The notes under the pieces: model-generated
Databases searched by the model: none
What the model was told of the DNA's origin: nothing
The model's input: only the letters and a program-made list of their open reading frames with translations
Shown here: piece after piece, positions 11,237-39,075 of the stretch
Layout: each line of letters starts with the position of its first letter
Position numbering within the stretch: the stretch's first letter is position 1
Source of the DNA: an uncultured delta proteobacterium
GTDB lineage: Bacteria; Desulfobacterota; Binatia; UBA9968
Direction: 5' to 3'
Assembly (NCBI GenBank): GCA_963745835.1
Contig: CAVUZH010000022.1
Location: 384,001 to 448,000, forward strand
Length of the DNA: 64,000 nt
Translations under genes and position numbers: made by a program

Positions 11237-11238
11237 CG

Positions 11239-21572: not shown

Positions 21573-22661
21573 TCACGGAGCTTTCAAATGGAGCAGCTTG
21601 CGAGTGTAGCCTTCAAGCTCCGCGGCCCGGCGCGACGCCGTGTGTTCAGACAGAACGCGCTCACGGGCTCGTTGCCCGATGTGGTCACGTTCTTGGGCGC
21701 TTAGTTCGAATAGGTATTCGAGCGTCTTTTCCGGTGAGTCGGCTACCAGAATCTCATCCCCCACCTTGAAAAAAGCATCCAGCCCCTCCCACCAATCGCT
21801 GATAATCGGGCAACCACAGGCAGCCGCTTCAAACAGCCGGATACTTGGTGAATAACCGGCGTCAACCATATTGGCCCGAGTTATATTGAGAGTAAAAGTT
21901 TGTTGGTTGTAAAAAGCTGGATGCGCGCATGGCGCCAGATGCTCGATGCGCTCAACATTTGTAGGCCACTCGATGGAACTGGGATACTGCGGGCCGGCAA
22001 CCACCATGCGAGCATCGGAGCAACGGCTGGCCGGATCGAGCAGCAGCTCTTGCAGACCCTGTTGGCGATCGGCGCTGTAAGTTCCCATGTAGCCCAAATC
22101 CCACCGCTTTGGCAGCGCCAGCGGTCTGTATAGATCGGCATCGACAGCGCAATACAGCGCTCGCGCCATCGGTGCGCCATAGTGCAGTTCCAGCTGCTCT
22201 AGGATCGGCCCTCCGGTAAACGAGAGATACAGCTGGTATTGTGGGATTAGGTCGGCGGAAAGGTAAAAAGAATCGCCGCGCTCCACAGAAGCCAGAGTCA
22301 CCGGCGTGTCGATATCATAAAAGGCCGTGATGCCGCGGGCGGTTTCCATGACCCACCGGCCAAGCTCAATTCCGTCTGGGACATACGAGCCTACCACCAC
22401 CAGATCGGCGTCGCGCACCATATCGTAAAAACGTTTCCTGAGTTGGTCCAAGCTGCGGTAGAGAAACGTTCCCCCCCGACGCGCATGGATTTGATCGCGA
22501 GCGGCGGCATACCAGGGCATATCGCGTTCGAGAAATAAAACCTGATGGCCGCGCTGTTCGAGTCCGCGCACCAGAGCTCGGTAAGTGGTCGCATGTCCAT
22601 TGCCCCAGGACGAAGTAATCGAAAGACCGAGGATCACAATGTTGAGCGGTTGAGTAGTCAT
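21573..22661 (-). CDS. CgeB-family (GT-B) glycosyltransferase
   Basis: SSWGNGHATTYR, FYDIDTPVT, SPSIRLFEAAACG..ISD, HT..RA. Confidence 0.88.
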   Translation of the reverse strand: MTTQPLNIVILGLSITSSWGNGHATTYRALVRGLEQRGHQVLFLERDMPWYAAARDQIHARRGGTFLYRSLDQLRKRFYDMVRDADLVVVGSYVPDGIELGRWVMETARGITAFYDIDTPVTLASVERGDSFYLSADLIPQYQLYLSFTGGPILEQLELHYGAPMARALYCAVDADLYRPLALPKRWDLGYMGTYSADRQQGLQELLLDPASRCSDARMVVAGPQYPSSIEWPTNVERIEHLAPCAHPAFYNQQTFTLNITRANMVDAGYSPSIRLFEAAACGCPIISDWWEGLDAFFKVGDEILVADSPEKTLEYLFELSAQERDHIGQRARERVLSEHTASRRAAELEGYTRKLLHLKAP

Positions 22662-23731
22662 AGACTCTGCAGCAACGATTCCAGCTCAGCGGCCCGGTGC
22701 GCATAAGTATGCTCGCCGAGGATTCGGCGCAAAGCAGCTTGCCCGATCTCTTTAGCTTGGGCTCTCGTTAAATGACGCAGCTGTTCACCGACCTCGTCGC
22801 CATCGTTGGCAACTAAACACTCGCGGTCCGGCTCGAGAAAATCTTCGATGCCATCCCAAGCATCGGTAATCAGACAGCCGGCGGCGCCGGCGACCTCGAA
22901 CAGACGAGTCGGCGGAGAGTAGCCGCAGCGCGCCATGCTTTCCCGGCAGACATTCAGAACGGCCATGGGCGTTGAATTGAAGGCGTTGTGTGCTGCGGTA
23001 TAGACGTGGCCAAGATAGGCGACATTGGCATAAGCCGGCACCGCATCGTCCCAACCGCTGCCACCGAGAATAAAGCGCATGCGTGGATTGGCTTGGGCCG
23101 GTTTGAAAAAGAATTCGAAGACCCGCGCCTCGCGATCCGGCAGGCGATTGCCGAGAAAGCTCAGCGCGCCGTCATAGCTCGAATCGGCAGGCGCGGGATG
23201 ATGCGTGCGGGGGTCCAACGCGTTGTATATTGGAAAGCATCGCTGCGCGCCAAGTTGCTTATAACTCTGCACCACCGCATCGCCACCGCCATAGGTAAGA
23301 ACCAGATCGTAGAGCGGAATCAGCGAGCGAAACGGATGGGCCTCGTCCCGACCGATTCGTTCCAGTGTCGCCGCGGCATCGACATCCCAAAAGGCAACAA
23401 TGCTGTCAGGGCGGCGCAACTCCAGAACAGTTTGTTCCAGGAGCGCATCGAAGACACCGACGCCGCTGGCCTTCACCAACAAATCCGATTCGCGCGCGGC
23501 TTTCTTGACCATCTCGATAACGGCTGACTCCCCGTCAACCGCATACACCACCGTCTGCGCGTAGGCCGTTTCGGTGAGATCTCGGTGCCGCTGCCGGTCC
23601 CAAGCATCAGGCTCATAAAAAACAATCTGATGCCCCCGCTCAAAGAGCGCGCTCAAAATTCCCCGGTAATAGGTCGCCGCGCCGTTCCAGTACGCCGACA
23701 GCAAACTCGATCCGAAAAACGCAATCTTCAT
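22658..23731 (-). CDS. CgeB-family glycosyltransferase
   Basis: SAYWNGAATYYRG, GNRLPDRE, PTRLFEVAGA, HTYAHRA. Confidence 0.88.
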   Translation of the reverse strand: MKIAFFGSSLLSAYWNGAATYYRGILSALFERGHQIVFYEPDAWDRQRHRDLTETAYAQTVVYAVDGESAVIEMVKKAARESDLLVKASGVGVFDALLEQTVLELRRPDSIVAFWDVDAAATLERIGRDEAHPFRSLIPLYDLVLTYGGGDAVVQSYKQLGAQRCFPIYNALDPRTHHPAPADSSYDGALSFLGNRLPDREARVFEFFFKPAQANPRMRFILGGSGWDDAVPAYANVAYLGHVYTAAHNAFNSTPMAVLNVCRESMARCGYSPPTRLFEVAGAAGCLITDAWDGIEDFLEPDRECLVANDGDEVGEQLRHLTRAQAKEIGQAALRRILGEHTYAHRAAELESLLQSL

Positions 23732-24867
23732 AGGTGCTTCTCGGGCGGTTGCTCCATCGCGTGATCTGATGGGACCGGCGAGTCGATGCGGTGGTAGATC
23801 TCGATCAGTTCGTCGAGCCGGTGGGCGCAGGTATGACGCTGCAGAATTGTCTTGCGCCCATGCGCCGACAATCGGCCGGCGAGTTGAGGATCGGCGAGCA
23901 GACGCTGCAGCTGCCGCTTCATCTCCGCACCGTCACGGGCGACCAGATAATCCTCGCCAGGGGTGAATAGATGTTCGCTGTCTTCCCAGGGCGCGCAAAC
24001 CAGAGGAATGCGGCAGGCCAGCGCTTCAAATGGACGAATGGTCGGAACACCGGGCAAAGCTTTGACGTAGGGCCGGCGCGGGATGTGAACCGTGACTCGG
24101 AAGCGGGCCAATGTGGCGGGCACTTGGAAGTTGGGCAACCAGCCGCCGTACTCGATACACGCGGCTGAAAGCGCTGCCAATGCTTCTGCCGGATAACGGA
24201 CGCCGTAAACGCGCGCTTTGAGACCCAGCGCTTTTACCGGCTCAAGAAGAAACTCATAGAGTTCCGCCGTGCGTTCTTCATCGCCCCAGTTGCCGATCCA
24301 GACCAGATCGCCCTCTTTTTCCTCATCGGGCAGCGGCATGAAAACTCTCGTGTCCGCGGCTTCATGCCACACCCAAACACGCTTGGCACAATTGCGCGAG
24401 CGATAAATTTCCGCAATTGCTTTACCGAAAACGAGAACACCATCATAGTCCGCCAAGTCGTAGGCCGCCATTTTCTCGGGTTCGGTAACGGACCGATGAT
24501 GCGTGTCATGAAACAGCAAGCGGTAATCGCCCTTGATTCTATGGTGCGCGCCGATTCGCCGGACCAAGGCCGGGTCATTCCATTCGTGAACGATGACGAG
24601 ATCGATCCGATCGAGCGCGCGATCCAGATCGAGAGTTGCCGGATCGTAAAAGGTGCTGCGCAAGCCGGGATAGATCTGTCGGAATGCCTCGACCGGCGCT
24701 TGGCCGTGCTCTCGCACTAAATTTGTACGACTCCATCCGTCGGCCGGTTCAAAGATCCGCAGCGTATGGCCGCGCCGCTGAACCTCCCAGGCGACACCGC
24801 GCAAGAAGTGCGCGTTGCCGTGATTCCAGTCCGACACCAGCGAATGAATAAAAAGAGCGATATTCAT
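23728..24867 (-). CDS. CgeB-family glycosyltransferase
   Basis: SDWNHGNAHFLRG, HDTHHR, PTIRPFEALAC, HTCAHR. Confidence 0.88.
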   Translation of the reverse strand: MNIALFIHSLVSDWNHGNAHFLRGVAWEVQRRGHTLRIFEPADGWSRTNLVREHGQAPVEAFRQIYPGLRSTFYDPATLDLDRALDRIDLVIVHEWNDPALVRRIGAHHRIKGDYRLLFHDTHHRSVTEPEKMAAYDLADYDGVLVFGKAIAEIYRSRNCAKRVWVWHEAADTRVFMPLPDEEKEGDLVWIGNWGDEERTAELYEFLLEPVKALGLKARVYGVRYPAEALAALSAACIEYGGWLPNFQVPATLARFRVTVHIPRRPYVKALPGVPTIRPFEALACRIPLVCAPWEDSEHLFTPGEDYLVARDGAEMKRQLQRLLADPQLAGRLSAHGRKTILQRHTCAHRLDELIEIYHRIDSPVPSDHAMEQPPEKHL

Positions 24868-25994
24868 GACGGGTATTCGCCGTGGGTTGTTTCTTCCGAG
24901 AACAGGCCCCGTTGCGCCCGCAGCAGTTTGGCGTAGATCTCCAAATATGCCCGCGCCATCCGCTCCGGTGAAAACGAATCCGCCCGTTTTCTCGCGCGCC
25001 GGGAGAAATCCTCGCGTAAGGATGGGTTTGCAATCAATTCGACAAGCGTCGCGCGAATATGCTCGGGATCGTCCGGTCGAATAAAAAGCGCGGCGTCATG
25101 CCAGATTTCGCGCAGGCTTTCAGTGTCCCCCAAAACCACAGCGCAGCCGCAGAGCGCCGCCTCCAGCGCGGATAAGCCAAACGGCTCGTAGCGAGCCGGC
25201 AAAATAAAAATCGCCGCGCGGCGAAACCACTGCCCGAGCATTTCCGGATCGAGGCGGCCTAGTAAATTCGGACCCTCCACAAGCGCCTGTTTTCCGTCGG
25301 GCGCGCGGCTCTCTCCGGCGGCATAAATCGGCCAGGGAACCTTTCCGACGATCGAGTTCAGGCTCGCAATGTTCTTGGCCTCGTCCCACAGGCGACCGGC
25401 GGTAAAGATGTAGTCTTCCTTTTTCCCGGGAGCGAAGCGCGCGCCGCTGCGACCGTTGTAAATTGGCTCTGCTGCGGCAAAGCGTCCATAATGTTTTTCC
25501 AAGGACGACAGCATCGAGCGGCTAGGCGCCGTCACTAAATCGGCGCCTTGCAGACCCAATCGCACGGCTTCCCGGTAAGATCGCCATTCCGGGCCAGGCG
25601 GCGCGCCTTTGACGGCTTCGAACCACGAGTAAACACACGAGTGGCCGACCACCAGAACCGGAACATTCCAGGGAATGGCGCCGTGGCTATATTGATTTAG
25701 ATGGATCAGGCTTGGTTGAAAGCGCGCTTCTAGATCGAGCAACCATTGTCCGGCGGCTTTCACATCGCTGCACGGCTCGTTCATCCACTCGAGCTTGTAG
25801 CTGCTCTCGCGCAGCTCGACGTTCTGCAAATCGCAAATCAATGCTCGCTCGCCGCGCTCGAGCTGCCTTCCCATGGTTGCCAGCACCACGTTGACGTCTC
25901 TCTTGGCCAGTTCCCGGCAAAGCTCCAGCGAGTATTGCCAAACTCCGCCGATGGGATCGGCGGTCATCAGTATCGGTCGCGTCGGTAACACCAC
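24864..25994 (-). CDS. Glycosyltransferase family 4
   Basis: MTADPIGGVW, AGRLWDEAKN, YEPFGLSALEAA. Confidence 0.9.
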   Translation of the reverse strand: MVLPTRPILMTADPIGGVWQYSLELCRELAKRDVNVVLATMGRQLERGERALICDLQNVELRESSYKLEWMNEPCSDVKAAGQWLLDLEARFQPSLIHLNQYSHGAIPWNVPVLVVGHSCVYSWFEAVKGAPPGPEWRSYREAVRLGLQGADLVTAPSRSMLSSLEKHYGRFAAAEPIYNGRSGARFAPGKKEDYIFTAGRLWDEAKNIASLNSIVGKVPWPIYAAGESRAPDGKQALVEGPNLLGRLDPEMLGQWFRRAAIFILPARYEPFGLSALEAALCGCAVVLGDTESLREIWHDAALFIRPDDPEHIRATLVELIANPSLREDFSRRARKRADSFSPERMARAYLEIYAKLLRAQRGLFSEETTHGEYPS

Positions 25995-26012
25995 TCGCAG
26001 TATTCCTCCCGT

Positions 26013-27065
26013 TCAATCAGAGACATTCTGCCGGTAAATTTCGTCGATTACTTCAGCCACCAGGTGCGCGGGTTCAATCCGCGCATCAAAGGTCGGGTCG
26101 ACGCTCAGCTGCTCGGCCCAGGCAACCGCGGCGCGCCCGCCCCACGGATCCGGGGGCTGGTCGAGAAGCATCCGACTGGTGCCTTGAAAACGTTCGGCAC
26201 GAAAATCGTAGAAAGAACCGCCGACGTTTTTTACGGACAAACCGCCTGCGGTGCCGAAGAAAGATGCGCTAATCAACGCATCGCGTCCCGCCGGCAGTCG
26301 CCAGGAGCAGGCCAGGTTGACGGTCGCGCCGGTCGTCAGATCCAGGCGCGCCAGAGCATAATCTTCGAGAGCGCCTGCCCGCCCCGGCACCGGTCTGCCC
26401 TGGCTGAACAAGCGGCTCGAAACTTTCTCAACGACAGGGAAATCGAGCATCCATAACGCCAGATCAATCAGGTGAATGCCCAGATCGATCATGCAACCGC
26501 CACCGGAAAATTTGCGGTCGTAGTACCAAGCTTTGTCTGGCCCATACGCATTATGAAAGACAAGATCAGCAACATAGATTGTGCCGATCTCCCCTGCGCT
26601 GATCATCTGTTTGATTTTTTGAACGCCGCGAACAAAGCGATAGGACAGGTCGACAGCTAAGAGCCGGTTCACCAGCCGCGCAGCCCGAATCACCCGCGCC
26701 GTCTCATCGGCGCTTCTTCCCAGCGGCTTCTGGCAGAAAACGGCCGTGTTGCTCTGCAGGGCGGCGATAGCTTGCTCGGCATGTAACGCCGTCGGCGTGG
26801 CGATCACCACACCATCGAGCTGCAATTCGAGCAAAGCATCCAGTGACGGCGCCGCCACTGCACCGGGAATTTGCGCGGCAACCTCGCTTGCGGCAGCGGT
26901 ATCGAAATCCGCCACCGCCGCGACTTGGACCGCGCCGCTTTCACAAATCGATTGCAGACGATGGCGGCCGATCCAGCCGACGCCGAGAAAACCCACTCGC
27001 GGCCGTAGTGAGGCGTCAGCAATGGGCAAGCAAGGTTCGGCCGATTTATCAAAGTGTCTAGTCAC
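26013..27065 (-). CDS. Gfo/Idh/MocA NAD(P)-dependent oxidoreductase
   Basis: GTG 27065 overlapping the upstream stop; GFLGVGWIG, IATPTALH, FCQKPL, GGCMIDLGIH. Confidence 0.88.
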   Translation of the reverse strand: MTRHFDKSAEPCLPIADASLRPRVGFLGVGWIGRHRLQSICESGAVQVAAVADFDTAAASEVAAQIPGAVAAPSLDALLELQLDGVVIATPTALHAEQAIAALQSNTAVFCQKPLGRSADETARVIRAARLVNRLLAVDLSYRFVRGVQKIKQMISAGEIGTIYVADLVFHNAYGPDKAWYYDRKFSGGGCMIDLGIHLIDLALWMLDFPVVEKVSSRLFSQGRPVPGRAGALEDYALARLDLTTGATVNLACSWRLPAGRDALISASFFGTAGGLSVKNVGGSFYDFRAERFQGTSRMLLDQPPDPWGGRAAVAWAEQLSVDPTFDARIEPAHLVAEVIDEIYRQNVSD

Positions 27066-27660
27066 TAATTTCTTCCGTGTTGTTGATGCAGAGAACCCGC
27101 GGCCCGTCCTGCTGCATGGCAACGATGCTGATCGATGCCGGACTGACTTCGAGCCGAAGCACAAGATCGAGCGGCATGCCCAAACAATGCGCCAGCGCGC
27201 CGCGGATAACGTCGGCATGACTGATCAGCGCAACGGTCATCGCCGGGTGGCGCCGGCACAGGAGCTCCATCAGGGCAAGCACACGGGCTTGAACCTCGAT
27301 CATCAGCTCGCCACCAGGAATGCGCGTGCAGCTACGCAGCGAATTGAAATCGCGCCATTGGGCGATGCCGCGCAAGTCGTCGAAGCTCTGCCCGCTCCAT
27401 TCGCCATAGTCGATCTCGTCGAGCTGCGGTGCGATCGTGACAGTCTCGCCAGAAAGCTCCGCCAAGAACTCTGCGGTCTCCCGCGCTCTTGGTTGAGGAC
27501 TGCTGTAGATTTTACCGATCCCCAGCTGCTTCAAGGAATGCACCAAGCGTTGGCCCTGAACTTTGCCGGCGGCGCTCAGATGCACGTTCGCATCCCGGCC
27601 GGCAAGACGACTTGGAACGCAGTCGGTGGCAGCGTGCCGGACAAAGATCAACCGTGTCAT
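27058..27660 (-). CDS. Histidine phosphatase family protein
   Basis: ATG 27660; FVRHA, YSSP..RARETA, EIDYGEW, ISHAD. Confidence 0.88.
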   Translation of the reverse strand: MTRLIFVRHAATDCVPSRLAGRDANVHLSAAGKVQGQRLVHSLKQLGIGKIYSSPQPRARETAEFLAELSGETVTIAPQLDEIDYGEWSGQSFDDLRGIAQWRDFNSLRSCTRIPGGELMIEVQARVLALMELLCRRHPAMTVALISHADVIRGALAHCLGMPLDLVLRLEVSPASISIVAMQQDGPRVLCINNTEEISD

Positions 27661-28367
27661 GGCGCGCCACATAGCTCGGCGCAGAGCTCGGTCAATGAAC
27701 TGACCACCTGGACTGTTGCCGGGCGTTGCGTTCGGCGTCGATCGAGCCAAACGCCCCGCATGCCCGCTGCCTGGCTCGCCAGCGCATCGACGTGAAGGCG
27801 ATCGCCGACATAGATCGATTGTTCGGCCGCACAACCGGCGATTCGGCAGGCAGCGCGAAAAATATCGGGATGTGGCTTAGCGGCGCCCACCTCCTGTGAC
27901 ACCACAGTCACCGCAAAGAAAGCCGCGATGCCGGTTTCTGCCAGCTTGCGCTTTTGGTGCTCGGCGCTGCCGTTGGAAATGATGCCGATAGGGTGCTGCG
28001 ATAACGCTTGCAGGCAAGGCAGCACGTCGTCGAACAGAGTCCAATGCCGGCGATAGTGCCGCTCGTAGAGCGCAAAGCAGTCATCGGCTTCGCGATCGGA
28101 GAGCTCCCAACCGATGCGACCGAACAACTCGCGCACTCGCAACCGGCGCTGCTCTTCGCTGGTAATGACGCCGGCGAAGAACGCGCGCGCATGCTTGTCG
28201 CGCAAGAAATCCCAAATCCGGCAGAAGCTGACCACCGAATAATTTCGACCCAGCGAATCGTGATAGACCGCCAGCAACTCGCGCGCAGCCGCTGCTTCGG
28301 CTTTTCGCTGGTCAATCAGGGTCTGATCGATATCGAAGAAGATCATCATTGCTGCGCAAGGTTTCAA
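27657..28367 (-). CDS. HAD-superfamily hydrolase (subfamily IA)
   Basis: FDIDQTL, IISNG, KPHPDIF, YVGD..D; start may be ATG 28349. Confidence 0.88.
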   Translation of the reverse strand: MKPCAAMMIFFDIDQTLIDQRKAEAAAARELLAVYHDSLGRNYSVVSFCRIWDFLRDKHARAFFAGVITSEEQRRLRVRELFGRIGWELSDREADDCFALYERHYRRHWTLFDDVLPCLQALSQHPIGIISNGSAEHQKRKLAETGIAAFFAVTVVSQEVGAAKPHPDIFRAACRIAGCAAEQSIYVGDRLHVDALASQAAGMRGVWLDRRRTQRPATVQVVSSLTELCAELCGAP

Positions 28368-28413
28368 ATTGATTCGAGTGAGCCCCTGAATGCCGCCCTG
28401 CTTTCCTGCTAGA

Positions 28414-28959
28414 CTATTCGCGGCTTGTTTGAGAAACCTCCCATTCCATTGCCCTCGGGCGCAGGCGCTTGCGAAAAATCCACAGTTGGAGATTCAGCGC
28501 CACGAATTTTTTTTCCGGTGTAGTGTAACTGAGCAGCCCTTCGGTGGAACCCGCAGAGCGATAACCCAGACGCTCGTAAAGCCGGCGCGCGCGCGGCTCT
28601 TGTTGATCCACCGTCAGCTCGCTCCAACGATAACCTCGCTCGAGCAGCAACCGTTCCGCGGCAATCATTAGACGGGAGCCGATGCCGTGATTGCGCAACA
28701 GTGGAAACACCCGCAGCGCCCATATCACGCCCACCGAATCGGTTTCTCGAACGCTCAGATCGAGCCATGCCTGACCGACCGGAAAATCGTCGAGATCAGC
28801 CACCAGCATCATCACCTCGCCAGCTTGCTGACGTCGAAAAGCCTCCTCGATCAGTTGGCGATATTCAGTATAGAGGCCGAACCATTCGAGCTGTGGCAAA
28901 TCCTGGCGCGCGCATTGGCGAATCTTCAGCTCTAGCTCTAAAGAGAAGCGACTTTTCAT
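28414..28959 (-). CDS. GNAT-family N-acetyltransferase
   Basis: V.P.LRNHGIGSRL (motif A), ARRLYERLGY (motif B). Confidence 0.88.
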   Translation of the reverse strand: MKSRFSLELELKIRQCARQDLPQLEWFGLYTEYRQLIEEAFRRQQAGEVMMLVADLDDFPVGQAWLDLSVRETDSVGVIWALRVFPLLRNHGIGSRLMIAAERLLLERGYRWSELTVDQQEPRARRLYERLGYRSAGSTEGLLSYTTPEKKFVALNLQLWIFRKRLRPRAMEWEVSQTSRE

Positions 28960-29403
28960 TTCTTGCTTGGTAGTACACCATCCGGTACAGCGGATGGTAA
29001 AGTCTCACCGGCTTCTCGAACCGCGTTTAGCGGCTTTGCGGCCGGTTTTCCTCGCGGCGGCCCCGCTGGATTTGCCCGCTGCGCTGCGCTTGCCGGCGGC
29101 GCGTGCGTCACACTCTCGCGGCTGACGATCTTGTTGAAATTACTCTTCTGCCCCCGCGCGGTGGTGTCCTGATAGACCAGAGCGAGTTTTTCACGATCGA
29201 ATTTTTCGAAGAATTCTTTCCACGAGATCTCCTCCAACGAACCGGAGCCGCTGTAGCCAGGAAAATCGATCCGCAGAATTCCACTATCATTCCCCTTTGC
29301 CGCGGGTGCTTTTCACGACCGCGGGGCGTCCGCCGCGGGCTTCGGCCCATTGACGGATTTCGCCGTGGTCGGTGACGGTTTTGGATTGGCTTCTACTGAC
29401 CAT
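28956..29403 (-). CDS. Conserved hypothetical protein (frameshift near 29293; alternative basic tail ending at 29005)
   Basis: GAGGAGG then ATG 29403: [30 protein letters not shown], then [24 protein letters not shown] in the next frame. Confidence 0.72.
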
Positions 29404-30344
29404 GAGTCACCCTCCTCAGTGGATTTCTTTTTGGTCGATTCATTCGTTGCCGTTCCTGCCGAGCTATAACGATGCACCATACGCGCGCAGAAATCGGCGA
29501 ACTCTTCGATGCACTGCGGCGGGCTGGTATGGTGCGGCTGGACACCGCACGATTCCGGCGTAAAGCACATCGTCAAAGTAACATCGAACTCCTCAAGAGC
29601 GCGCATCTGCCGGTCAAACCATTCCATGGCCCCCGGGCGCAGGCTGTCTGACCAGCTCAAGCCGGTGCGTAGATAACGAACATTCAATTTGCGCAGCCAG
29701 CGCACCGCTTGATCCAGCCGGTAATCCTCGAAGTGAAACCATTGGCAAATACCGAGCCGGGGCGTGTACGGCGAAAAATGTTTGAGCGCCAGCTTGGGAG
29801 TGCCGTCCTCATGAAGCAGTCCCATGTAAAAGTGGCGGTAGTATGATGAGCCCTCGGCCTCGCGATGGCGTGTCGTGGCCGGCCACGCGCGCGGCAGATC
29901 ATACAGGCTATACCAGTGTATCCGCGGCGCCCGCTCAATCAGCAGATCGGCGGTGCGCTGCAAGCCCCACTCCTGGACTTCTTCGGCGCCGAAGCTCGAG
30001 ACGCCGACTTCTGAAACCCAGATCGGCAAATCCGTCACGGCGCGAATCTCATCGAGCTTTGCCGGCCACTCATGAATATTCCAGTGATTCCAGTCCAGCG
30101 GAAAACCATGAACCGCCACCGCGTCGAGACTTTCGAGCACGTGCTGTGACTGCATATTGCGGATGAAAGCGCCGTCTATCGGAGAAATGCCGCCGAGCAC
30201 CCGGAAAAGCCGGGGATTTTCAGCCGCTACGGCGGTCGCCGCGAGCTTGACCATTTCGCCATAGATCCGCCACTCCGGATCGAGCGAAAAATCCCAATGC
30301 GATTTGTTGTTGGGCTCGTTCCAAAACATTACCGCTTCGACCAT
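29313..30344 (-). CDS. Clan GH-A-like glycoside hydrolase ('beta-xylosidase'), circularly permuted; true 3' end probably near 29400-29460
   Basis: TAATG-coupled start; WNEP acid/base, AVHGFP, WVSEVG nucleophile; LRTGLSW block at the C-terminus. Confidence 0.8.
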
Positions 30345-31123
30345 TAGGGCTCCTCTATCTCGCCGGGCCAGTGACGGCCGCCAGCAGTGATTGCCGCGCA
30401 CCGGCAGACGTACACTTCGGCTTCAGGATTGGCTTCGATGGTGAATCCAGCGCTGCGCAGCATCGCCTCGCTGCAGGCGCGATTGGGCACCCACCAGTTG
30501 GTCGGATCGCCGGAGTATTTTTTTTCGATGAAGCACAAGCGCGGAAACCCGGGCTTCTCGAAAATATCCTCGTTCCAGAATTCGTAATCGTCCTCCAGAG
30601 ATGCGACTTCATTGCTGCCACGTTGCATCGATTGAAAGACGAATAAATCCTTGGCGACATGCCGGCGAATCAAATCCAGAGCCAGCAGCGGGTGGCGCAG
30701 ATGATAGAGAACGCCCATGAAGAGCACGATATCGAACTTTTCCGCCAGCGCGCCGACATCGTAGACCGAAAGTTTGCGGAGCTCGATGTCAACGCCGCAG
30801 ATCTCCGCGGCCAGGCGCGCCTGAAGCAAATAGTCATTGTCCGAATCGATGCCGACCACCCGCGCCGCGCCACGGCGTTTCATCTCGATGGAGTAAAAGC
30901 CGCCATTGCAACCGATGTCGAGAACCGTTTTGTCCGCGAGATTGTCCGGGATCGCGTGGGCAAAGCGTTGCCACTTCACCCGTGGGTAATCTCCAAGAAA
31001 ATGCTCGGGGGCGGTCTGCACGCCCGCCAGATCGAGGTTGTGAAACCAGGGGCCGAGCCGGCGCACTTGATTTTCGATCTCATCGCGGGTCATCTTCCGC
31101 CGAGGAACCGCAAGCCGATTCAC
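30344..31123 (-). CDS. SAM-dependent methyltransferase, TIGR04290-like family
   Basis: AGGAG then GTG 31123; PWFHNLDL, HFLGDYP, VLDIGCNGG, MGVLYHLRHP, DPTNWW.PN. Confidence 0.87.
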   Translation of the reverse strand: MNRLAVPRRKMTRDEIENQVRRLGPWFHNLDLAGVQTAPEHFLGDYPRVKWQRFAHAIPDNLADKTVLDIGCNGGFYSIEMKRRGAARVVGIDSDNDYLLQARLAAEICGVDIELRKLSVYDVGALAEKFDIVLFMGVLYHLRHPLLALDLIRRHVAKDLFVFQSMQRGSNEVASLEDDYEFWNEDIFEKPGFPRLCFIEKKYSGDPTNWWVPNRACSEAMLRSAGFTIEANPEAEVYVCRCAAITAGGRHWPGEIEEP

Positions 31124-31875
31124 GCCTTGATCTCCTGAAGTTCTGAGCGCTGCTCGGAACCGCTGAGCAGCCGGATCGCTTCGCGATAGCCGTACAGAGT
31201 GCCCACATCGACATAAGCGCTGCCGGCGCGGACGCCCCACGCCTGACCGCCTTCGCCGAGATAGGCATTGACCAGAGTGCCTACGTACTCGTCGGCGCGC
31301 CCACGCCGGCACCACAACTCATGCAGCTTGATCATGACCGAACCGGGCATCTGGAAGGCGCCCCAGACCCAGTGCGATAACGGCTCACGCGATTTGACCC
31401 GGATCTGGCGCACGCAACCCACGTCGTCGGTCAGAACGGCATCGAATAATTCTGGACGGCTCACGGGAAAAAGCAGAAACGATAAAGCATCGCGCGGCAG
31501 TGAGCAGAAACCATCTTCTGGAAACCAGATGGTATCGGGCAGGCCGATCATCACCGGATCATCGGCGCCGATTAGCGGCAGCGCGCAGAACAGCGCGTCG
31601 CACAAACCTGACGTCTGGGGCTGCACAACATAACACAAACGCGCAGGCCCGAAGCTGGCGCCGTAGTATTCGAGAATGTCACATTTGCCGGGCGAGATAA
31701 TGAAGCAGATTCGGCTGGCGCCGGCCCGAACCATGCGTTCCATAATGTATTCGCTGACCGCCCGAGGCCGCTCGGTCTCGCCATCGAAGCGGCTCCCTAC
31801 CGGCAGCAGTTCTTTGGAAAACGCCAGCGGTTGAATTCGGCGGCCGGCACCGGCGGCCGGAATGATTCCCCACAT
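31120..31875 (-). CDS. Sugar-phosphate nucleotidyltransferase (RmlA-like)
   Basis: GIIPAAGAGRRIQPL..SKELLPV, GLPD, YVDVGT. Confidence 0.88.
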   Translation of the reverse strand: MWGIIPAAGAGRRIQPLAFSKELLPVGSRFDGETERPRAVSEYIMERMVRAGASRICFIISPGKCDILEYYGASFGPARLCYVVQPQTSGLCDALFCALPLIGADDPVMIGLPDTIWFPEDGFCSLPRDALSFLLFPVSRPELFDAVLTDDVGCVRQIRVKSREPLSHWVWGAFQMPGSVMIKLHELWCRRGRADEYVGTLVNAYLGEGGQAWGVRAGSAYVDVGTLYGYREAIRLLSGSEQRSELQEIKA

Positions 31876-31877
31876 TC

Positions 31878-33002
31878 TCAGGCTTCTCCCCGCAGGACAC
31901 GGCAATTTTCTGCGGCGCCCACAAGCGGCTCCGGCCCATGAGCCGCAACGCTATCGAGTATGGCTTCCAGTTGCCGCGCCCTTCTGGCGGCGCAATGCTC
32001 CTCCATAGCGCGTTGCCGCGCGCGCCCGGCAATGCGCGCCAGTTGAGCATCGCTCAATTCCAACGCTGCCATAACATCGGCAGTTTGAGTCGCTACGAGA
32101 ATCTCTTCGCCCGGTTGAAAAAAACTTTCCAGACCGTCCCAACAGTCGGTGACGACCGGCGTGCCGCATGCCGCGGCTTCGAAGAGGCGCCCCGACGGGC
32201 AATAGCCTGACTGCGCCATGGCGCGACGGGTGACGTTGAGAGTCAGGCGTGATGACGAGTAAAGCGCCGGATGATCCGGCGGGGCGATGTGGCGCACGAA
32301 AAAAAGGTTTTGCAGCCAAGCGAACGCCGGCGGGTACTGCGCTCCGGCGATTAGAAAACGCCGCTCCGGCAGGCGCCGCGCCGGCTCGAGAAAGAGCGCG
32401 TTGAGCATTGCTTGGCGATCATCGGCGTAAGTGCCGATATACGACAAGTCGGCGCGGTAGCTTTCCCGCGCCATTACCGGTCGATGCACAGCGGGATCGA
32501 CACTGCCGTAAAGCGCCACCGCCCGCTTGGCGCCGAGCCGGCTCTGGAGCTCCAGCAGCGCGCGCCCGCCGGTAAAACTCAAGACGATGTCAAAATCGCG
32601 CAATCCCGAAGCGCCGATGTAACCGACGCCATGACCGGCTTCGATCCGTTCCAAGGTCACCGGGGTGTCGAGATCATAGAAAACCCTCAAGGGCCGCGAG
32701 CTGACAACGACCTCGGTAGCGGCGATCCCATCCGGACAATAGGACGTCACCATCGCCACCTCGGCATCGGCCAGATGCTGCCGGGCTTGGGAGAGCGCTT
32801 CACTCCAGGTCTCATAAAGAATGAGCTTGCCGCCGGGAATGTCGTGAAAATCGCGGTGCGCCGCATAATAGGCAACGTTCTTTTCGAAAAAAATCACTTG
32901 GTGCCCCAGGCGCGCCAACTCCCGACACAAGCCGCGCCAAACCGTAGCATGGCCGTTGCCCCAGGATGAGCTGATCGTCAGGCCAAAAATAACCAGCTTC
33001 AT
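31878..33002 (-). CDS. CgeB-family glycosyltransferase
   Basis: SSWGNGHATVWRG, FYDLDTPVT, PSGRLFEAAACG. Confidence 0.88.
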   Translation of the reverse strand: MKLVIFGLTISSSWGNGHATVWRGLCRELARLGHQVIFFEKNVAYYAAHRDFHDIPGGKLILYETWSEALSQARQHLADAEVAMVTSYCPDGIAATEVVVSSRPLRVFYDLDTPVTLERIEAGHGVGYIGASGLRDFDIVLSFTGGRALLELQSRLGAKRAVALYGSVDPAVHRPVMARESYRADLSYIGTYADDRQAMLNALFLEPARRLPERRFLIAGAQYPPAFAWLQNLFFVRHIAPPDHPALYSSSRLTLNVTRRAMAQSGYCPSGRLFEAAACGTPVVTDCWDGLESFFQPGEEILVATQTADVMAALELSDAQLARIAGRARQRAMEEHCAARRARQLEAILDSVAAHGPEPLVGAAENCRVLRGEA

Positions 33003-33061
33003 TTTTCCGCCATTCGCAGTATTCCGGATCGCACGCTTGAGGATTCGTTCATGCGTTGTCG

Positions 33062-34186
33062 TTAAGCTCGCTTTCTGACCGGCCGCGGCGTTGCTCTGAC
33101 GGTTGTCGATTGATGATTGCGAATGAATGCTTCGGTGCGCTCGCGCGCTTCGTTATCGGTAAATTGCTGCGGTGGCGATTTCATAAAGTAACTCGACGGG
33201 CCGATCACGGCGCCGCCCATACCGCGGTCGAGGGCCAGTTTGGCGCAGCGCACCGCGTCGATCACGACGCCCGCAGAATTGGGCGAATCCCAAACTTCGA
33301 GCTTCACCTCGCAGTTGAGCGGCACGTTGCCGAAGGTGGTGCCTTCCAGGCGGATGTAGCACCACTTGCGGTCGTGCAGCCACGGCACGTAGTCGCTCGG
33401 ACCGACATGCGCATCATCGCTCGACATTGGGTAATCGAGCTGGCTGGTCACCGCGTTGGTTTTGGAAATTTTTTTCGATTCCAGTCGCTCGCGTTCGAGC
33501 ATGTTGAGGAAGTCGGTGTTGCCGCCGAAATTCAGTTGATAGGTTCGATCCAGGCGCACGCCGCGCTCGCGAAACAGGTTCGCCAGTATCCGGTGCGTAA
33601 TCGTCGCGCCGAGTTGCGACTTAATGTCGTCGCCGATGATCGGCAGGCCGCGCTCTTTAAAGCGCTTACGCCAATAGGGCTGTGAGGCGATGAATACCGG
33701 AATGCAATTGACGAACGCGCATCCAGCTTCGAGGATCTGCTCGACGTACCACTTGGTCGCCATTTCGGAACCCACCGGCAGGTAAGACACAACCACATCG
33801 GTGCGTGTGGAACGCAGCGTTCCGACGATATCGCTGGTTGAGCCCGGCGCCTTGCGGATTTTTTGGCTCAAATATCTGCCGAGACCGTCATGGGTCATGC
33901 CGCGCCGAACTTCTACGCCGCTGCGCGGCACATCGGTAAAGCGGTAGGTGTTGTTCGGTTCGGCGAAAATCGCCTCGGACAGGTCCTTGCCGACTTTGTT
34001 GCTATCGATATCGAACGCGGCGCTGAATTCGACATCACGCACGTGATAGCCGCCTAGGCTCACGTGCATCAGACCGGGCACAAACTGATGGGGATCGGCG
34101 CTTTTGTAAAATTGCACTCCCTGAACCAGGGACGAGGCGCAGTTCCCGACGCCGATCACGGCGACTCGCACTTTTCTGTTGCTCAT
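33062..34186 (-). CDS. ino1: myo-Inositol-1(3)-phosphate synthase
   Basis: [56 protein letters not shown]. Confidence 0.94.
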
Positions 34187-35187
34187 TCTTGGACGCTCGC
34201 CTGATTGGGGCGCGGTTGTATCCATGATTTTAGAAATCCTTCCGGCCGCTCATCGAGCGCGGCAAACGCGGCGCTGATGTTCTCGAGTGGAAACCCGTGA
34301 GTGTAGAGAGATTCGGTCTCCAACGCCCCTTGCGCCACCCGCTCGGCCGCTGCTTTCATCCCTGCGACATAGCGGCGCGGATCGCGCTCGTGAGCGTTGA
34401 TGACATCGATGCCGCGCCAGTTCCAAAGCTGCATATTCACCCGGCGCGGCGCGTCCTGATGATAGCCCGCAATCACCAGCCGGCCGCGAACACCGACCAG
34501 CTCGCTTGCCAGATCGATCGTCTCCTGTTCGCCGGCGGCTTCGATGACACACGAGCAGCCCGATCCATCGGTCCGTTCCATGACCCGCGCAATCACGGCC
34601 GTCTGATCGCTACTAGCCAATGCCTCTGCAGCGCCGTAGCGGCGCGCCACGTGCAACGCGAACGGGCGTCGCGAAATAGCGAGAACATGCGCGCCCGCAG
34701 CAACAGCAAGCTGGATCAGGAGCGCGCCCAAAAATCCGATCCCCACTACCGCGACCGTCTGCTCCGGTTCGATGCCACAGCGGCGAAAAATATTCATCGC
34801 GCAACCCAACGCCTCGCCCGGGAATATTTCAGTAGTTGCAGGAACGCGCACCAGGCTGTCGGCGCGGGCGATGTCGTACTCGGCGTAAGCTCGGCTGGAT
34901 AAGAAGGCAACCCGCTCTCCGGGCCGGACGCCATCGACCTGCGCCCCGACCAAATCAACCCGCCCCCATCCCTCATGTCCGGGCGCGCCGGGCTCGATCG
35001 GGTAGTGAAACCAGGGCCGGCCGCGCCACAGCGGTAAGTTCGATCCGCAGACGCCGCAACCATCCACTTGAATCCGCACTTCGCCGGCACCCGGTTCGGG
35101 CACCGCGATCTCATCGATTTCGACCTGCCGCGGCGCGACGATTCGCGCCGCGCGCATGGTCCGGCGATTAGAATGATCGAGGTTCAT
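34183..35187 (-). CDS. Zinc-dependent medium-chain (polyol-type) dehydrogenase
   Basis: GVCGSN, GHEGWG, GIGFLG; lacks the four-Cys structural Zn loop. Confidence 0.88.
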
Positions 35188-35190
35188 GGG

Positions 35191-37383
35191 TCAATACGGC
35201 TGCGAGGCCTTGCCCGCTCGTTCTTGTCGATCTTGCGCGACCAGGCCGCTTCTCATTCCAGTTTTCCGTCTGAACGATCCGTTGCGGGAGGCGCCGCCGA
35301 CAACACGAACTTGTTCCAGACCGCGGGCGCGGCGCAACCATTCATAAAGTTTCTGCACGCCTTCTTCGGGATCGACGCGCGGCGCCCAACCGGTTGCGTC
35401 CTGGAACTTGCGGGTATCGGAAACATAGTAACGCTGATCTCCGGCGCGCCAGTCACTGCTTTCGCAGGCCGGGGCTTCGCCATGAAGCTCGACGATCATG
35501 TCGACGAGCTCTAAAAGACTCAGCGCGCGCGGCGGCCCGCCGCCCATGTTGAAAGCCTGCCCGGAAATGTTGCGCATCTGCGAGCGCGCCGCCAAAAAGG
35601 CTTCTACCAAATCGTCGATGTAAAGCACGTCACGCACCTGCATACCGTCGCCGTAGAGCGTCAGCGGGCGGTCTTCGAGCGCACAGATTAAGAAGTGCGC
35701 CACCCAACCCTGATCTTCGTTGCCCATTTGATGCGGGCCATAGATGCAGCTCATGCGAAACACCGCCGCAGGGAGTCCGAAGGTTCGGGCGTAGTCGATG
35801 ACGTACTCGTCGGCCGCTCCCTTGGAGCAGCCGTAAGGGCTGTGCAGATCCAGCGGCCGCGATTCGTTGATCCCATGCTCGCGCAAAAACGGATCGAGCG
35901 GGTGATAAGCGCCTTCTTCGCAGCTCAGTCGGACATTCTCGAGGCCGCCATAGACTTTATTGGTCGAGGTAAATATTAGCGGCGCGGGGTCATCGGCACC
36001 GCGTAATGCTTCGAGCAAGTTGAGTGTTCCAAGCGCGTTGACATCAAAATCGTGGCGCGGGTTGGCCAAGCTGGTGGTGACCGCGACTTGCGCCGCGAAA
36101 TGAAATACCTGTTTGGCATTACGCACCGCGCGGCGCAGCGCGTAAGGATTGCGCACGTCGGCAAACTCCACCTGGACTCGCTTTGCGTGCGTTTCCAACA
36201 ACCATTTCAAATTGCGCTCAACACCCGGGCGTGACAAGTTATCGAACACCAAAACACGCTCGCCGTCGCTCGCCAGACGATGCGCCAAATTGGTGCCGAT
36301 AAAACCGGCGCCGCCGGTGATGACCACCGGTTGAGTCGGCTTGGCGGCGCTGCGGCGCGCGCCAGGATGCGGTTCGAGCGCTTCACACACCGCGTCCAGT
36401 CCGCCCTCACCCCACAGTCGCGCCAGTAATTTCTCGCTACCGTCGCTGCGGCGCAGCCCGAAATGATAATCCCGATCGTCGGCATGAAAGCCATCACGCG
36501 TCGAAAATTCCGGGTCGAGATCGCGCGCCCCGAGCCAGTAAAGTCGCTCCACCGGCGCTTCCAAAGCCCGGGCGAAGGCGCGCAATTGTTCGTACTCGTC
36601 GTGGCGCCAAGTGGAATATCCGGTGGCGCTGATCCAGATTTCAGCGCCGGAACGGTGCTGCGTCAAAATCTGCTGCACGCTCTGAACCACCGCCGGCCAA
36701 CTCTCCCAATTAGCTTCAGAGGTGCCCGGAAATCTATGAATACCGACGGCATCGATGTACTGCATCACGCCGCGCCGGAACATCAATTCGAGCCAGTTAG
36801 GGTCGAACGCATTGAGCCCGGCAAGCAATGTACGCTTGCCGCGTCGCTGCGCCCAATAAGCGGCGCCGCCGATCATGGCACAGAATGTTTGCCAGTGCGG
36901 ATCGAGGGTGCGATCCCATTCACTCAACCGATCGGGCTCGTTCCATAGCTCGATCCATTCAAAACAATTGCCCAGACGGGTGATCAGCACGTCGATAAAA
37001 TCGCCGTAGGCCTTGGGATCCCAGGGCGGAGCCGAGACACGCGGCGCCACCGCCTGCGATAACGGCGTGTAGAGCACGCACGGGATCAGATTCACTTGCC
37101 TAGCCAGATGCGGCAAGAGCCAACTGTACCAGGTTTCGCCTTCGGCGCTGTCCCAATCGGCCCACGACACCGTGGTACGCAGGTCGGCGACTCTCAATTC
37201 GCGCAGATCGGCGAGAACTTTTTCAACCCCGGCGCGATCGCCGATGCGAAAGCTTTCGACGACTCCGATCCGGACTCCGGCGCCATCGTCGGCTTCGGCG
37301 ATTTGGGCGCGCAAACTGGGATGCTTGCAGACATCTGCCTTGCTGCCTGCCGCGCCGTTTCGGCCGGCCCTCGCCTTCTTCAC
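35191..37383 (-). CDS. Fusion of a GH-A-like domain and an NAD-dependent epimerase (CDP-paratose 2-epimerase-like)
   Basis: N-terminal LRTTVSW, WNEP, GIHRFP; C-terminal TGGAGFIG, AAQVAVTTS, STNKVYG, YGCSK, DQGWVAHF. Confidence 0.88.
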   Translation of the reverse strand: MKKARAGRNGAAGSKADVCKHPSLRAQIAEADDGAGVRIGVVESFRIGDRAGVEKVLADLRELRVADLRTTVSWADWDSAEGETWYSWLLPHLARQVNLIPCVLYTPLSQAVAPRVSAPPWDPKAYGDFIDVLITRLGNCFEWIELWNEPDRLSEWDRTLDPHWQTFCAMIGGAAYWAQRRGKRTLLAGLNAFDPNWLELMFRRGVMQYIDAVGIHRFPGTSEANWESWPAVVQSVQQILTQHRSGAEIWISATGYSTWRHDEYEQLRAFARALEAPVERLYWLGARDLDPEFSTRDGFHADDRDYHFGLRRSDGSEKLLARLWGEGGLDAVCEALEPHPGARRSAAKPTQPVVITGGAGFIGTNLAHRLASDGERVLVFDNLSRPGVERNLKWLLETHAKRVQVEFADVRNPYALRRAVRNAKQVFHFAAQVAVTTSLANPRHDFDVNALGTLNLLEALRGADDPAPLIFTSTNKVYGGLENVRLSCEEGAYHPLDPFLREHGINESRPLDLHSPYGCSKGAADEYVIDYARTFGLPAAVFRMSCIYGPHQMGNEDQGWVAHFLICALEDRPLTLYGDGMQVRDVLYIDDLVEAFLAARSQMRNISGQAFNMGGGPPRALSLLELVDMIVELHGEAPACESSDWRAGDQRYYVSDTRKFQDATGWAPRVDPEEGVQKLYEWLRRARGLEQVRVVGGASRNGSFRRKTGMRSGLVAQDRQERAGKASQPY

Positions 37384-38492
37384 AGGGTCAATCCTCGAGC
37401 TGCCAGCTCGGCGCTGGCACTATCGACGTGATCGTTGGCGATCTGCCCTTCGAGCCAATCGGCAAGCTCCAAGACCCCGTCCTCGAGCGTTACCCGCGGT
37501 GCGTAGCCGAGGATCGATCTGGCAAGCGTTATATCGGCAAAACAGTGGCGTATGTCACCCACGCGATATTTACCGGTGATTTGCGGCTCGAGACTTTTGC
37601 CGAGTGCGTCCGCCATCCGTTCAGCTAACTCGGAAATGGTAAAGGCCTGACCGCTGCCGATGTTGAGAACTTTGTCCGGCGCTGCCGCTGCATCAAGAGA
37701 CAATCTGCAGGCCTGCACCACATCTCTGACATTGACAAAGTCCCGTTGTTGTTCGCCATCCTCAAAGATCAGCGGCGCTTTGCCGTTGAGCAAACGAGAG
37801 GCGAAAATCGCCAGCACACCGGTATACGGATTGGATAGCGCCTGTCGCGGTCCGTACACGTTGAAAAAACGCAGGGCGACGGTGGGAATATTGTAGGCGC
37901 GGCCGATCATCAGACACAGCCGTTCCTGAACATACTTCGACAGCGCATAAACCGAACTGAGCGCCGGCGTCTTGGTCTCCGGCGTTGGGATCGGTTCGAG
38001 AGCCGCGCCTTCGTCATCAAGCGGATCCCAACGGGCGGAACGCAGCTGCGTCGGGCTGCGCTCGACGGCACAATGAATAGCTCCACGGCGCGAACGATAG
38101 AGTCCTTCGCCGTAGACGCTCATACTCGACGCAACGATCAGCCGTTCAACTGGACGTTTGATGAGTGCTTCTAAGAGCACGGCGGTGCCGATATCGTTGA
38201 TACTGGCGTAATGCTCGACCTCGTACATGCTCTGGCCAACGCCGACCGCCGCGGCAAAATGATAGACTGCGTCAATTCCCTGCAATGCCCGCTGAACTGC
38301 AGCGCGGTCGCGAACATCGCCGAGCACGAGTTCGACATCAGGATTCAAATATTCAGGCGATTGCTTTTCGGCGCCATGTACTTGCGAGCACAGGAGATCG
38401 AAGACTTTGACGGTATGGCCATTGTGCAGAAGCTCGTCGGCTAAATGAGAGCCGATAAATCCAGCTCCGCCGGTGATGAGAATTCTAGCCAT
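37380..38492 (-). CDS. NAD-dependent epimerase/dehydratase (extended SDR)
   Basis: TGGAGFIG, ASSMSVYG, YALSK, NVYGP..NPYTGV. Confidence 0.92.
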   Translation of the reverse strand: MARILITGGAGFIGSHLADELLHNGHTVKVFDLLCSQVHGAEKQSPEYLNPDVELVLGDVRDRAAVQRALQGIDAVYHFAAAVGVGQSMYEVEHYASINDIGTAVLLEALIKRPVERLIVASSMSVYGEGLYRSRRGAIHCAVERSPTQLRSARWDPLDDEGAALEPIPTPETKTPALSSVYALSKYVQERLCLMIGRAYNIPTVALRFFNVYGPRQALSNPYTGVLAIFASRLLNGKAPLIFEDGEQQRDFVNVRDVVQACRLSLDAAAAPDKVLNIGSGQAFTISELAERMADALGKSLEPQITGKYRVGDIRHCFADITLARSILGYAPRVTLEDGVLELADWLEGQIANDHVDSASAELAARGLTL

Positions 38493-38633: not shown

Positions 38634-39075
38634 CTGAGATACATCGCGCCATGCAACGTAGATGGCGGATCAATGAGAATCTGACGTGTGCATCTCACGC
38701 GCAGCTGGATTGTTGGTCAACGTACATACAATCGTTCAAGAGTTTGTACGCGATCACGATGGATGCCGACGCACTAACAGCAATGATGCTGCTACCCTTA
38801 TTAATATTACGCGAAGTCGTCTTGTACTCGATCGTCCCAAAGGAGAAACTATTAAACATGAATGATGTTTCAATTACGCGATTGATCGCGGCGGCGCGGC
38901 GTGTGCCGATTTGAGGACACGCGCTCCTGCGTTCGAAGCCCGCGTCGTCCAGTATTGCGATGGCCCTCGTTTTGCGCCGACATTAGGACACTAGCGATGA
39001 GTTTAGCCTGCGTGTGCGCCCGGGCATAAGCGGCATGTGATTGCTGCGGACCATTCACAAACATTGCAAAGAAAA

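Follow-up and report, generated by a model that had tools for sequence, protein, structure and literature searches.

A predicted circularly permuted GH-A-type barrel and its unpermuted, fused paralog in a bacterial biosynthetic gene cluster

We analysed a window of 64,000 nucleotides from the metagenome-assembled genome (MAG) of an uncultured delta proteobacterium (Desulfobacterota, Binatia, UBA9968; GenBank assembly GCA_963745835.1, contig CAVUZH010000022.1, positions 384,001 to 448,000 of the forward strand), which holds two related genes for barrels resembling the glycoside hydrolases (GH) of clan GH-A. The first, P0001 (29313..30344, minus strand, 343 aa), was delimited by its open reading frame (ORF) and translation, by evidence for its start and by a structural model, and is predicted to encode a circularly permuted barrel. 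The second, P0002 (35191..37383, minus strand, 730 aa), joins an unpermuted barrel to an SDR epimerase domain. We regard it as likely that P0001 is a permuted GH-A-type barrel, remotely related to PslG and GH39, which would serve as an active glycosidase or transglycosidase of an inositol-glycoside pathway, and that the fused paralog is an alternative carrier of this function. The MAG comprises 25 contigs and is 97.1% complete, with 9.33% estimated contamination.

Strand order and predicted fold of P0001

The original prediction described two paralogous barrels in one cluster, one of them a permutation of the other, and all of its motifs were found in the two translations, in the order claimed. 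Using BLASTP we obtained the two offset diagonals expected of such a pair: residues 3-185 of P0001 align with 142-319 of P0002 (27% identity over 188 columns, E 6e-17), and residues 196-295 align with 38-139 (25% identity over 102 columns, E 4e-7). Hidden Markov models (HMMs) of the two blocks, built from the permuted family, matched P0002 at 140-324 (E 1.2e-25) and 38-139 (E 8.3e-15), and a comparison of the permuted with the unpermuted family by hhalign gave a probability of 100 and an E-value of 4.7e-47 for block B. This block (residues 1-192; 29769..30344, minus strand) runs from beta4-alpha4 to beta8-alpha8, as placed by the elements of the model and the alignment to PslG. Block A (residues 196-295; 29460..29759, minus strand), shifted C-terminally, carries beta1-alpha1 to beta3-alpha3, as judged from the model and the match to P0002, and also resembles the N-terminal ~100 residues of the unpermuted relatives.

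The old C-terminus and the old N-terminus are bridged in P0001 by a linker of about ten residues, and the words that follow this linker are those with which the unpermuted relatives begin (GICQWFH[YF]ED). Since the terminus of P0001 (..RRYAP) and its start ([13 protein letters not shown]) correspond to the sequence RYG..F...ELWNEPNN in the alpha3-beta4 region of the unpermuted proteins, the cut can be placed in the alpha3-beta4 loop, and P0001 would be a complete (beta/alpha)8 barrel of the GH-A type permuted at this point. The claim that the permuted chain begins at the acid/base strand, beta4, is in agreement with the model, where the first strand (4-7) directly precedes N9-E10-P11. P0001 displays the properties of a natural circular permutant: its two blocks are homologous to those of a relative in swapped order, they make up one and the same domain, and the arrangement is fixed across a family.

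The AlphaFold2 model of P0001, calculated from a 46-row alignment, has a mean predicted local distance difference test score (pLDDT) of 86.6 and a predicted template-modelling score (pTM) of 0.82, with 255 residues at or above 90; only residues 156-164 and the tail from residue 300 are of low confidence (pLDDT below 50 at 300-333 and 338-342). The model can be divided into eight beta-alpha units: strand 4-7 with helix 26-42, strand 47-53 with helix 58-66, strand 75-80 with helix 90-101, strand 108-113 with helix 121-135, strand 142-145 with helices 166-173 and 187-193, strand 198-200 with helix 210-219, strand 224-230 with helix 239-249, and strand 254-260 with helix 279-294. This is the eight-stranded beta/alpha barrel of the GH-A fold, arranged as beta4 to beta8 followed by beta1 to beta3 and not in the canonical order from beta1 to beta8. 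The ordered part, of about 296 residues, ends at residue 296, and no additional domain accompanies the barrel. The tail (residues 296-343 and the stop codon; 29313..29459, minus strand), of low pLDDT and varying in length and sequence among the homologues of an 18-sequence alignment, is probably disordered.

The C-terminal block had been considered as a possible separate domain, and the model instead predicts one barrel that includes it, in agreement with the TIM-barrel alignments over the whole range of the chain. In a structural search of representatives, generic TIM barrels align over residues 1-300 of the model with Z 12-14, as expected of a closed barrel built from both blocks; an example is 7uek_A, a designed 228-residue barrel (Z 13.8, 218 residues aligned). 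Foldseek, a sequential aligner ill-suited to a permuted chain, returned weak and mixed TIM-barrel matches (best E 2.9e-5, TM 0.3-0.46), among them the GH39 entry 5jvk, aligned over 214 columns. The most conserved stretch of P0001 is an Arg/His-rich loop, W154-F172, specific to the permuted family, of which the part 156-164 is modelled with low confidence and which may be a mobile lid over the active site. Within it, residues 154-171 (29832-29885; [18 protein letters not shown]) are near-invariant across phyla.

The start of P0001 at 30344 is secure on sequence evidence. The preceding methyltransferase gene ends in a TAA that has one base in common with the ATG of P0001 (TAATG), a Shine-Dalgarno sequence, GAGGAG, lies 5 nt before this ATG, and the N-termini of P0001 and 17 homologues support the start, 16 of the 18 reading M[IV]EAVM[FL]WNEPNN and the other two starting from the internal Met. 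The one-base overlap of stop and start is consistent with translational coupling of the two genes.

Relatives, distribution and origin of the permuted family

The sole specific structural match of P0001 was PslG (4zn2_A, Z 12.0, root-mean-square deviation 2.2 Å over 175 residues, 21% identity), aligned at 156-356 with residues 1-195 of the model. Given that searches of PDB chains with single sequences gave nothing meaningful (best E 0.26 for P0001 and 0.18 for the N-terminal domain of P0002), profiles were needed to find relatives of known structure. The permuted-family profile matched PslG with a whole-sequence E-value of 5e-6 in two stretches of swapped order, 3-193 with chain positions 132-328 and 200-295 with 25-130. 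The profile of the unpermuted relatives was collinear with PslG over the whole barrel (9-304 with 21-331, E 3e-14) and gave weaker matches to GH39, GH1, GH53 and GH5 entries, the GH39 beta-xylosidases lying between E 8e-5 and 1e-2. These comparisons indicate that the permuted family is a remote relative of PslG and GH39.

Block B holds both predicted catalytic residues: the acid/base in N9-E10-P11, after strand 4-7, and the nucleophile in S111-E112, where E112 ends strand 108-113. By the permuted-profile alignment and the numbering of the structural match, E10 (codon 30315..30317, minus strand) falls on E165 of PslG and E112 (codon 30009..30011, minus strand) on E276; an excerpt of PMC9075953 gives these as the key hydrolytic residues of PslG, a hydrolase encoded within a biosynthetic operon. 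E10, E112, H79, W144 and R226 are invariant in all 18 aligned sequences, and given that they fall in each block, R226 in the moved one, both blocks appear to be under the same constraint.

PslG (Pseudomonas aeruginosa, GH39; PDB 4zn2 and 5bx9) resembles P0001 in its GH-A barrel, in the N-E-P motif after beta4 and in the nucleophile after beta7, and both are glycosidase-type proteins encoded in glycan biosynthesis clusters (for PslG, the same excerpt of PMC9075953). The two differ in strand order, which is canonical in PslG and permuted in P0001, and their identity is only about 21%. P0001 consists of the barrel and the disordered tail, without signal peptide or anchor. PslG is anchored in the membrane and has a further domain at its C-terminus, and GH39 structures show an additional non-catalytic domain beside the barrel. 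The one Pfam family that touches these barrels is PF11790 (Glyco_hydro_cc), within block B, and a linear model of this kind cannot describe the permuted order; the relatives P0388, P0243 and P0325 score 36.4, 23.1 and 22.2 bits, above its cut-off of 21. A language-model atlas has clusters under the names 'glycosyl hydrolase' or 'beta-xylosidase', in which a minority of the proteins carry PF11790.

A natural permutation of a glycoside-hydrolase TIM barrel is described in excerpts of PMC9732880 and PMC4919382 for the GH70 glucansucrases, compared with GH13 and the non-permuted GH70 enzyme GtfC. As in the P0001 family, permuted and non-permuted relatives coexist there. GH70 enzymes belong to clan GH-H, act on alpha-glucans, have another cut point and are large multidomain extracellular proteins, in contrast to P0001, a small single-domain protein, predicted to be cytoplasmic, with a GH-A-type barrel cut between alpha3 and beta4. 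The literature searched (subscription journals not covered) contains no description of a circularly permuted clan GH-A or GH39 barrel.

The permuted family is large. A word-indexed protein search with P0001 matched at least 8000 clusters at 90% identity; the best 120 of these measure 279-368 aa, are 62-94% identical in the best alignment and mostly bear the JGI name 'beta-xylosidase'. An exhaustive search of 50%-identity representatives gave 1195 proteins at E ≤1e-3. Of those listed, 29 were 270 aa or longer and matched a block, 15 of them in the order B-A, nine in the order A-B and five with B only. The A-B proteins are standalone, of about 310-340 aa, and 32-41% identical to the blocks of P0001, closer than P0002. 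These unpermuted standalones (P0307, P0325, P0360, P0370, P0371, P0376, P0387 and P0388) and the fusions P0123-P0242 have P0001-type motifs in both blocks, the common ones being GICQWFH, LRTG-SW-D, TPP, WNEPNN, VHGFP, W-[ST]E-G and YWYSL-DL; they keep the canonical A-B order and have pathway genes in common with the permuted form.

In a collection of one genome per species, the permuted gene was confirmed in 593 of 600 candidate stretches, and thus in at least 593; the figures for related loci given here rest on the best 80 of these. The 80 loci are labelled with more than ten phylum-level groups, including Acidobacteriota, Verrucomicrobiota, Gemmatimonadota, Planctomycetota, Nitrospirota, Armatimonadota, Bacteroidota, Myxococcota and several proteobacterial classes, and some come from complete genomes of Sorangium and Archangium strains in culture. 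Azospirillum oleiclasticum, a Variovorax sp. and Hymenobacter cavernae are further cultured carriers. The closest of the 80 is a Candidatus Binatia MAG (95% identity for P0001 and 95-98% for the proteins of the cluster). The permuted gene was present in three of 301 sampled Acidobacteriota genomes and the fused form, at E 1e-9, in none of them, and in Armatimonadota we found twelve weak matches to block B only (E 1e-7 to 1e-10). Cluster genes were present in six of seven other genomes of the source genus, in none of 17 other genera of the source family and in none of 16 genomes from the rest of its order; this patchy presence within the family fits acquisition by transfer, as we infer it. A Bryobacteraceae MAG (G784) has two permuted genes (contigs C360 and C90) and two fused genes (C360 and C373), on different contigs; either the genes are truly duplicated or the bin could contain more than one strain.

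A quick IQ-TREE analysis of 37 rows (13 permuted, eight unpermuted standalone and 16 fused proteins), with the blocks reordered alike and midpoint rooting only, placed all permuted proteins on one side of a branch with an SH-aLRT of 95 and the fused proteins in one clade (95), with the unpermuted standalones in between. Considering that the permuted form is fixed in a large family on one side of that branch, the permutation probably arose once, and the canonical order, common to PslG and the other GH-A matches, would be the ancestral state. Circular permutations usually arise by duplication, fusion and truncation. Considered as intermediates of this kind, the long proteins P0244, P0256, P0258, P0261, P0309 and P0405 were rejected as read-throughs with frameshift-like junk.

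The fused paralog P0002

An unpermuted paralog had been predicted in the same cluster, and the gene of P0002, identified by its ORF, Pfam matches and a model with pLDDT 80.4, lies 5 kb upstream of that of P0001. The two do lie in one cluster, but they are not a recent local pair, being 25-27% identical and belonging to two deep monophyletic groups; the genome holds no further copies. The barrel of P0002 (residues 38-336; 36376..37272, minus strand), delimited by the block HMMs and by model elements from strand 38-43 to helix 319-336, contains eight beta-alpha units as in P0001, in the canonical order from beta1 to beta8. It is followed by the SDR domain (residues 353-686; 35326..36327, minus strand; PF01370, E 5e-48), which resembles CDP-tyvelose 2-epimerase (1orr_D, Foldseek E 8.7e-31, 43% identity). 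The Foldseek matches to the whole model were taken up by SDR structures and were uninformative on the barrel.

The barrel of P0002 retains N-E-P, and the BLASTP alignment places Ala253 (codon 36625..36627, minus strand) at the nucleophile position, reading 'WISATG' against 'WVSEVG' in P0001, so that this domain lacks the nucleophile glutamate of an active GH-A enzyme. Among 121 fused sequences the nucleophile column holds E in 69, A in 34, S in 14, D in two and Q in two, and the acid/base triplet is NEP in 110, DQP in four and another in seven. All 48 sequences with A or S at the nucleophile are 62-100% identical to the N-terminal domain of P0002, and every listed fused sequence at least about 70% identical to its barrel carries A or S. 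Identities of 70-95% across the barrel suggest that this clade is still under selection. A separate small clade of fused proteins (P0169-P0171 and P0174) has D-Q-P in place of N-E-P and retains the nucleophile Glu.

The permuted gene is a constant member of the cluster in other genomes and the fused GH-like domain is usually absent: the second SDR gene carries a barrel in only two of the 18 loci whose upstream side is visible, a clear one in L029 (NRP, 'ITATG') and a degenerate one in L013, detected by tblastn only. We searched for a second copy in 81 genomes with the permuted gene (1 + 5 + 50 + 25) and found one in 13. The residues at the acid/base and nucleophile positions of the fused domain are NEP and A in the window, G805 and G819, NRP and A in G775, NAA and A in G002, NSS and Q in G001, NQP and Q in both copies of G784, NKP and E in G786 and G768, SEP and G in G778, TEP and E in G820, and DEP and E in G810; both positions are degenerate in G761. 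In 11 of the 13 the fused domain has one or both catalytic Glu exchanged, or a motif degraded beyond recognition, and the full signature of NEP plus E is absent from all 13, although this wider criterion was chosen post hoc. The replacements follow eight different patterns, which speaks for a catalytic Glu having been lost several times separately.

In six genomes we found an unpermuted copy and no permuted gene, two among 201 Planctomycetota (G018 and G084) and four among 251 Armatimonadota (G442, G335, G279 and G353). NEP and E are intact in every one of these copies, and Fisher's test on the retention of both glutamates (2/13 against 6/6) gave p = 0.001. Two genomes of the source genus, G831 and G835, with a fused NEP/A gene and no permuted gene, were left out, as their contigs end in the cluster before the expected site; G836 and G837 hold both forms and lie outside the 13-genome residue count. 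The intact fused gene of G018, G335, G353 and G442 stands in a sub-cluster with an SDR gene and three CgeB-like glycosyltransferases (GTs), together with a Zn-dependent dehydrogenase in three of the four, and the module of synthase, methyltransferase and permuted gene was not nearby in these four loci. The unpermuted barrel would therefore be, on this reading of the residue counts, an alternative carrier of the activity where the permuted gene was not found, and where both forms occur it would persist, conserved, as a non-hydrolytic module.

Gene cluster, pathway and competing explanations

The co-directional cluster (21573..38492, minus strand) was delimited by family scans and by the same gene set in related loci. 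From 38492 downwards it encodes an SDR epimerase/dehydratase, P0002, a Zn-dependent dehydrogenase (nearest model scyllo-inosose 3-dehydrogenase), inositol-3-phosphate synthase, a CgeB-like GT, a nucleotidyltransferase, a TIGR04290 methyltransferase, P0001, a GNAT protein, a HAD phosphatase, a histidine phosphatase, a Gfo/Idh/MocA oxidoreductase (nearest model inositol 2-dehydrogenase), a GT4 and, as far as 21573, three more CgeB-like GTs. P0001 would thus be a core member of a conserved pathway with inositol-3-phosphate synthase, nucleotide-sugar enzymes and five glycosyltransferases. In the 80 loci the gene directly upstream of the permuted one is the methyltransferase in 55, the nucleotidyltransferase in 10 and the inositol-phosphate synthase in seven. 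The methyltransferase gene of the window (30344..31315, minus strand; 381 bits against a cut-off of 300) is the longest ORF and overlaps the nucleotidyltransferase gene (31120-31905, minus strand) by 196 bases; its TIGR04290 match starts only at residue 80, and the true start is probably further downstream.

Other clusters additionally hold a PIG-L/LmbE deacetylase, a second GT4 and a FemAB-type acetyltransferase, and the source genome, at 97.1% completeness, gave no PIG-L match. Among 27 long relatives the permuted barrel is fused to PIG-L/LmbE in six clean cases, and it is also joined to the methyltransferase in two and to a PF04230 domain in one. The six N-acetylglucosaminyl deacetylase fusions (P0393-P0397 and P0400) are of about 605 aa, and in L009 a deacetylase gene (11225-12064) directly follows the permuted gene; fusions and adjacency point to a substrate bearing GlcNAc. 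Inositol-phosphate synthase, GT4, deacetylase and phosphatases together recall the first steps of mycothiol synthesis, and by this analogy the product may have a GlcNAc/GlcN-inositol core extended by further sugars. The pathway looks modular from its gene content: the sub-cluster of SDR, (GH-)SDR and three CgeB-like GTs, with the Zn-dependent dehydrogenase in three of four, occurs in L099-L102 (G442, G353, G335 and G018, respectively) without the module of synthase, GT, nucleotidyltransferase, methyltransferase and permuted GH, and G001 and G002 each carry the two modules on separate contigs. The searched literature does not mention TIGR04290 or describe the combination of inositol-1-phosphate synthase, LmbE, CgeB and methyltransferase. 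Adjoining the cluster and divergent from it, genes for a DUF3182 protein (E 4.5e-138), an alpha/beta hydrolase and a DUF2071 protein occupy 39037-41837 on the plus strand.

Considering that both catalytic glutamates and residues from both blocks are conserved, P0001 would be an active cytoplasmic retaining glycosidase or transglycosidase, which might trim or remodel the inositol-linked glycoside of the pathway. Several points weigh against this explanation as a whole. The match to PslG is remote (21% identity over block B), its second permuted-profile stretch is weak alone (independent E 13), and the activity of the family is assigned from conserved residues. PF11790 reaches only 18.6 bits on P0001, below its cut-off (E 0.0014, residues 3-125 only), and no NCBIfam model matches. 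Closure of the predicted barrel, from the last helix to the first strand, is supported by alignments rather than contacts, and no A-B-A or A-B-A-B intermediate was found among 150 listed representatives and 27 proteins of 602-2000 aa. Regarding the paralogs, both glutamates are kept in two of the 13 genomes with two forms (G820 and G810). The co-occurrence sample is small and consists mostly of fragmented MAGs, in which failure to find the permuted gene may reflect incompleteness, and its genomes are not independent, the window and G805 representing one genus and G786 and G768 one pattern. Finally, a hydrolase without signal peptide has no obvious job within a biosynthetic cluster.

The most serious alternative, which we judge unlikely, is that the permuted barrel is real and is not a hydrolase: with the GH-A fold and the carboxylates retained, its part in biosynthesis would be that of a transglycosidase, of a phosphorylase-like enzyme or of a subunit that binds sugar. 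It would explain the cytoplasmic location of P0001, whose chain begins at beta4 with no signal peptide, and its place among glycosyltransferases, where all neighbours are biosynthetic enzymes; the conserved Arg/His-rich loop could bind an anionic group, and the median identity of P0001 over the best 80 loci (73.5%, inflated by a list chosen on similarity) is at the level of the inositol-phosphate synthase. On the other hand, both glutamates and the Asn before the acid/base are retained as in retaining hydrolases, and the closest solved relative, PslG, is itself a hydrolase of a biosynthetic operon according to the excerpt of PMC9075953; transglycosidases use the same residues, so that sequence cannot separate the two.

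That P0001 is a catabolic GH39 beta-xylosidase for plant xylan, as the JGI name of most relatives and the weak matches of the unpermuted profile to GH39 beta-xylosidases would have it, is highly improbable. The best solved match is PslG and not a xylosidase, about 296 ordered residues are too few to include the second domain that GH39 xylosidases have (chains of 500-524 aa), and PF01229 does not match P0001, one relative reaching only E 0.058. The surroundings are a conserved biosynthetic cluster, in which family scans recognised no sugar-uptake or xylan genes. We consider it barely conceivable that the gene is a non-functional remnant, or an artefact of assembly or gene calling in which the tail of one barrel was joined to the head of the next. 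A permutation just after tandem duplication and truncation would look so, the MAG has the contamination stated above, and among the long database relatives several are read-throughs, with a frameshift, out of the gene upstream; yet thousands of proteins from many phyla, at 70-94% identity, have this architecture with the same start and end, Sorangium cellulosum So ce56 being one of the cultured strains with a complete genome that encode it, the invariant residues lie in both blocks and the model is confident.

TIM barrels are, to our knowledge, rarely circularly permuted in nature; such permutations are test cases for the tolerance of a fold to re-ordering and for the rise of new families, GH70 being the textbook case among glycosidases. 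Here both topologies form large families, 32-41% identical to each other and set among the same pathway genes, so that what the permutation entails could be studied directly. Linear profile models under-call the permuted family, and its annotation as 'beta-xylosidase' is unsupported by context. The intact permuted enzyme beside a fused barrel with broken residues offers a testable example of paralog displacement, within a cluster, confirmed in at least 593 stretches, that apparently has no described product. The full conjunction, that this is the first natural permutation described in clan GH-A and a new, widespread GH family or GH39 offshoot, which repeatedly took over from an older fused barrel kept as a pseudo-glycosidase in an undescribed inositol-glycoside pathway, is possible rather than probable. 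If true, a minimal cytoplasmic enzyme of 296 residues would start at its acid/base strand, the older fused barrel would have lost its catalytic glutamates many times independently and yet been kept as a conserved module, and both forms would serve this pathway in many soil and freshwater phyla.

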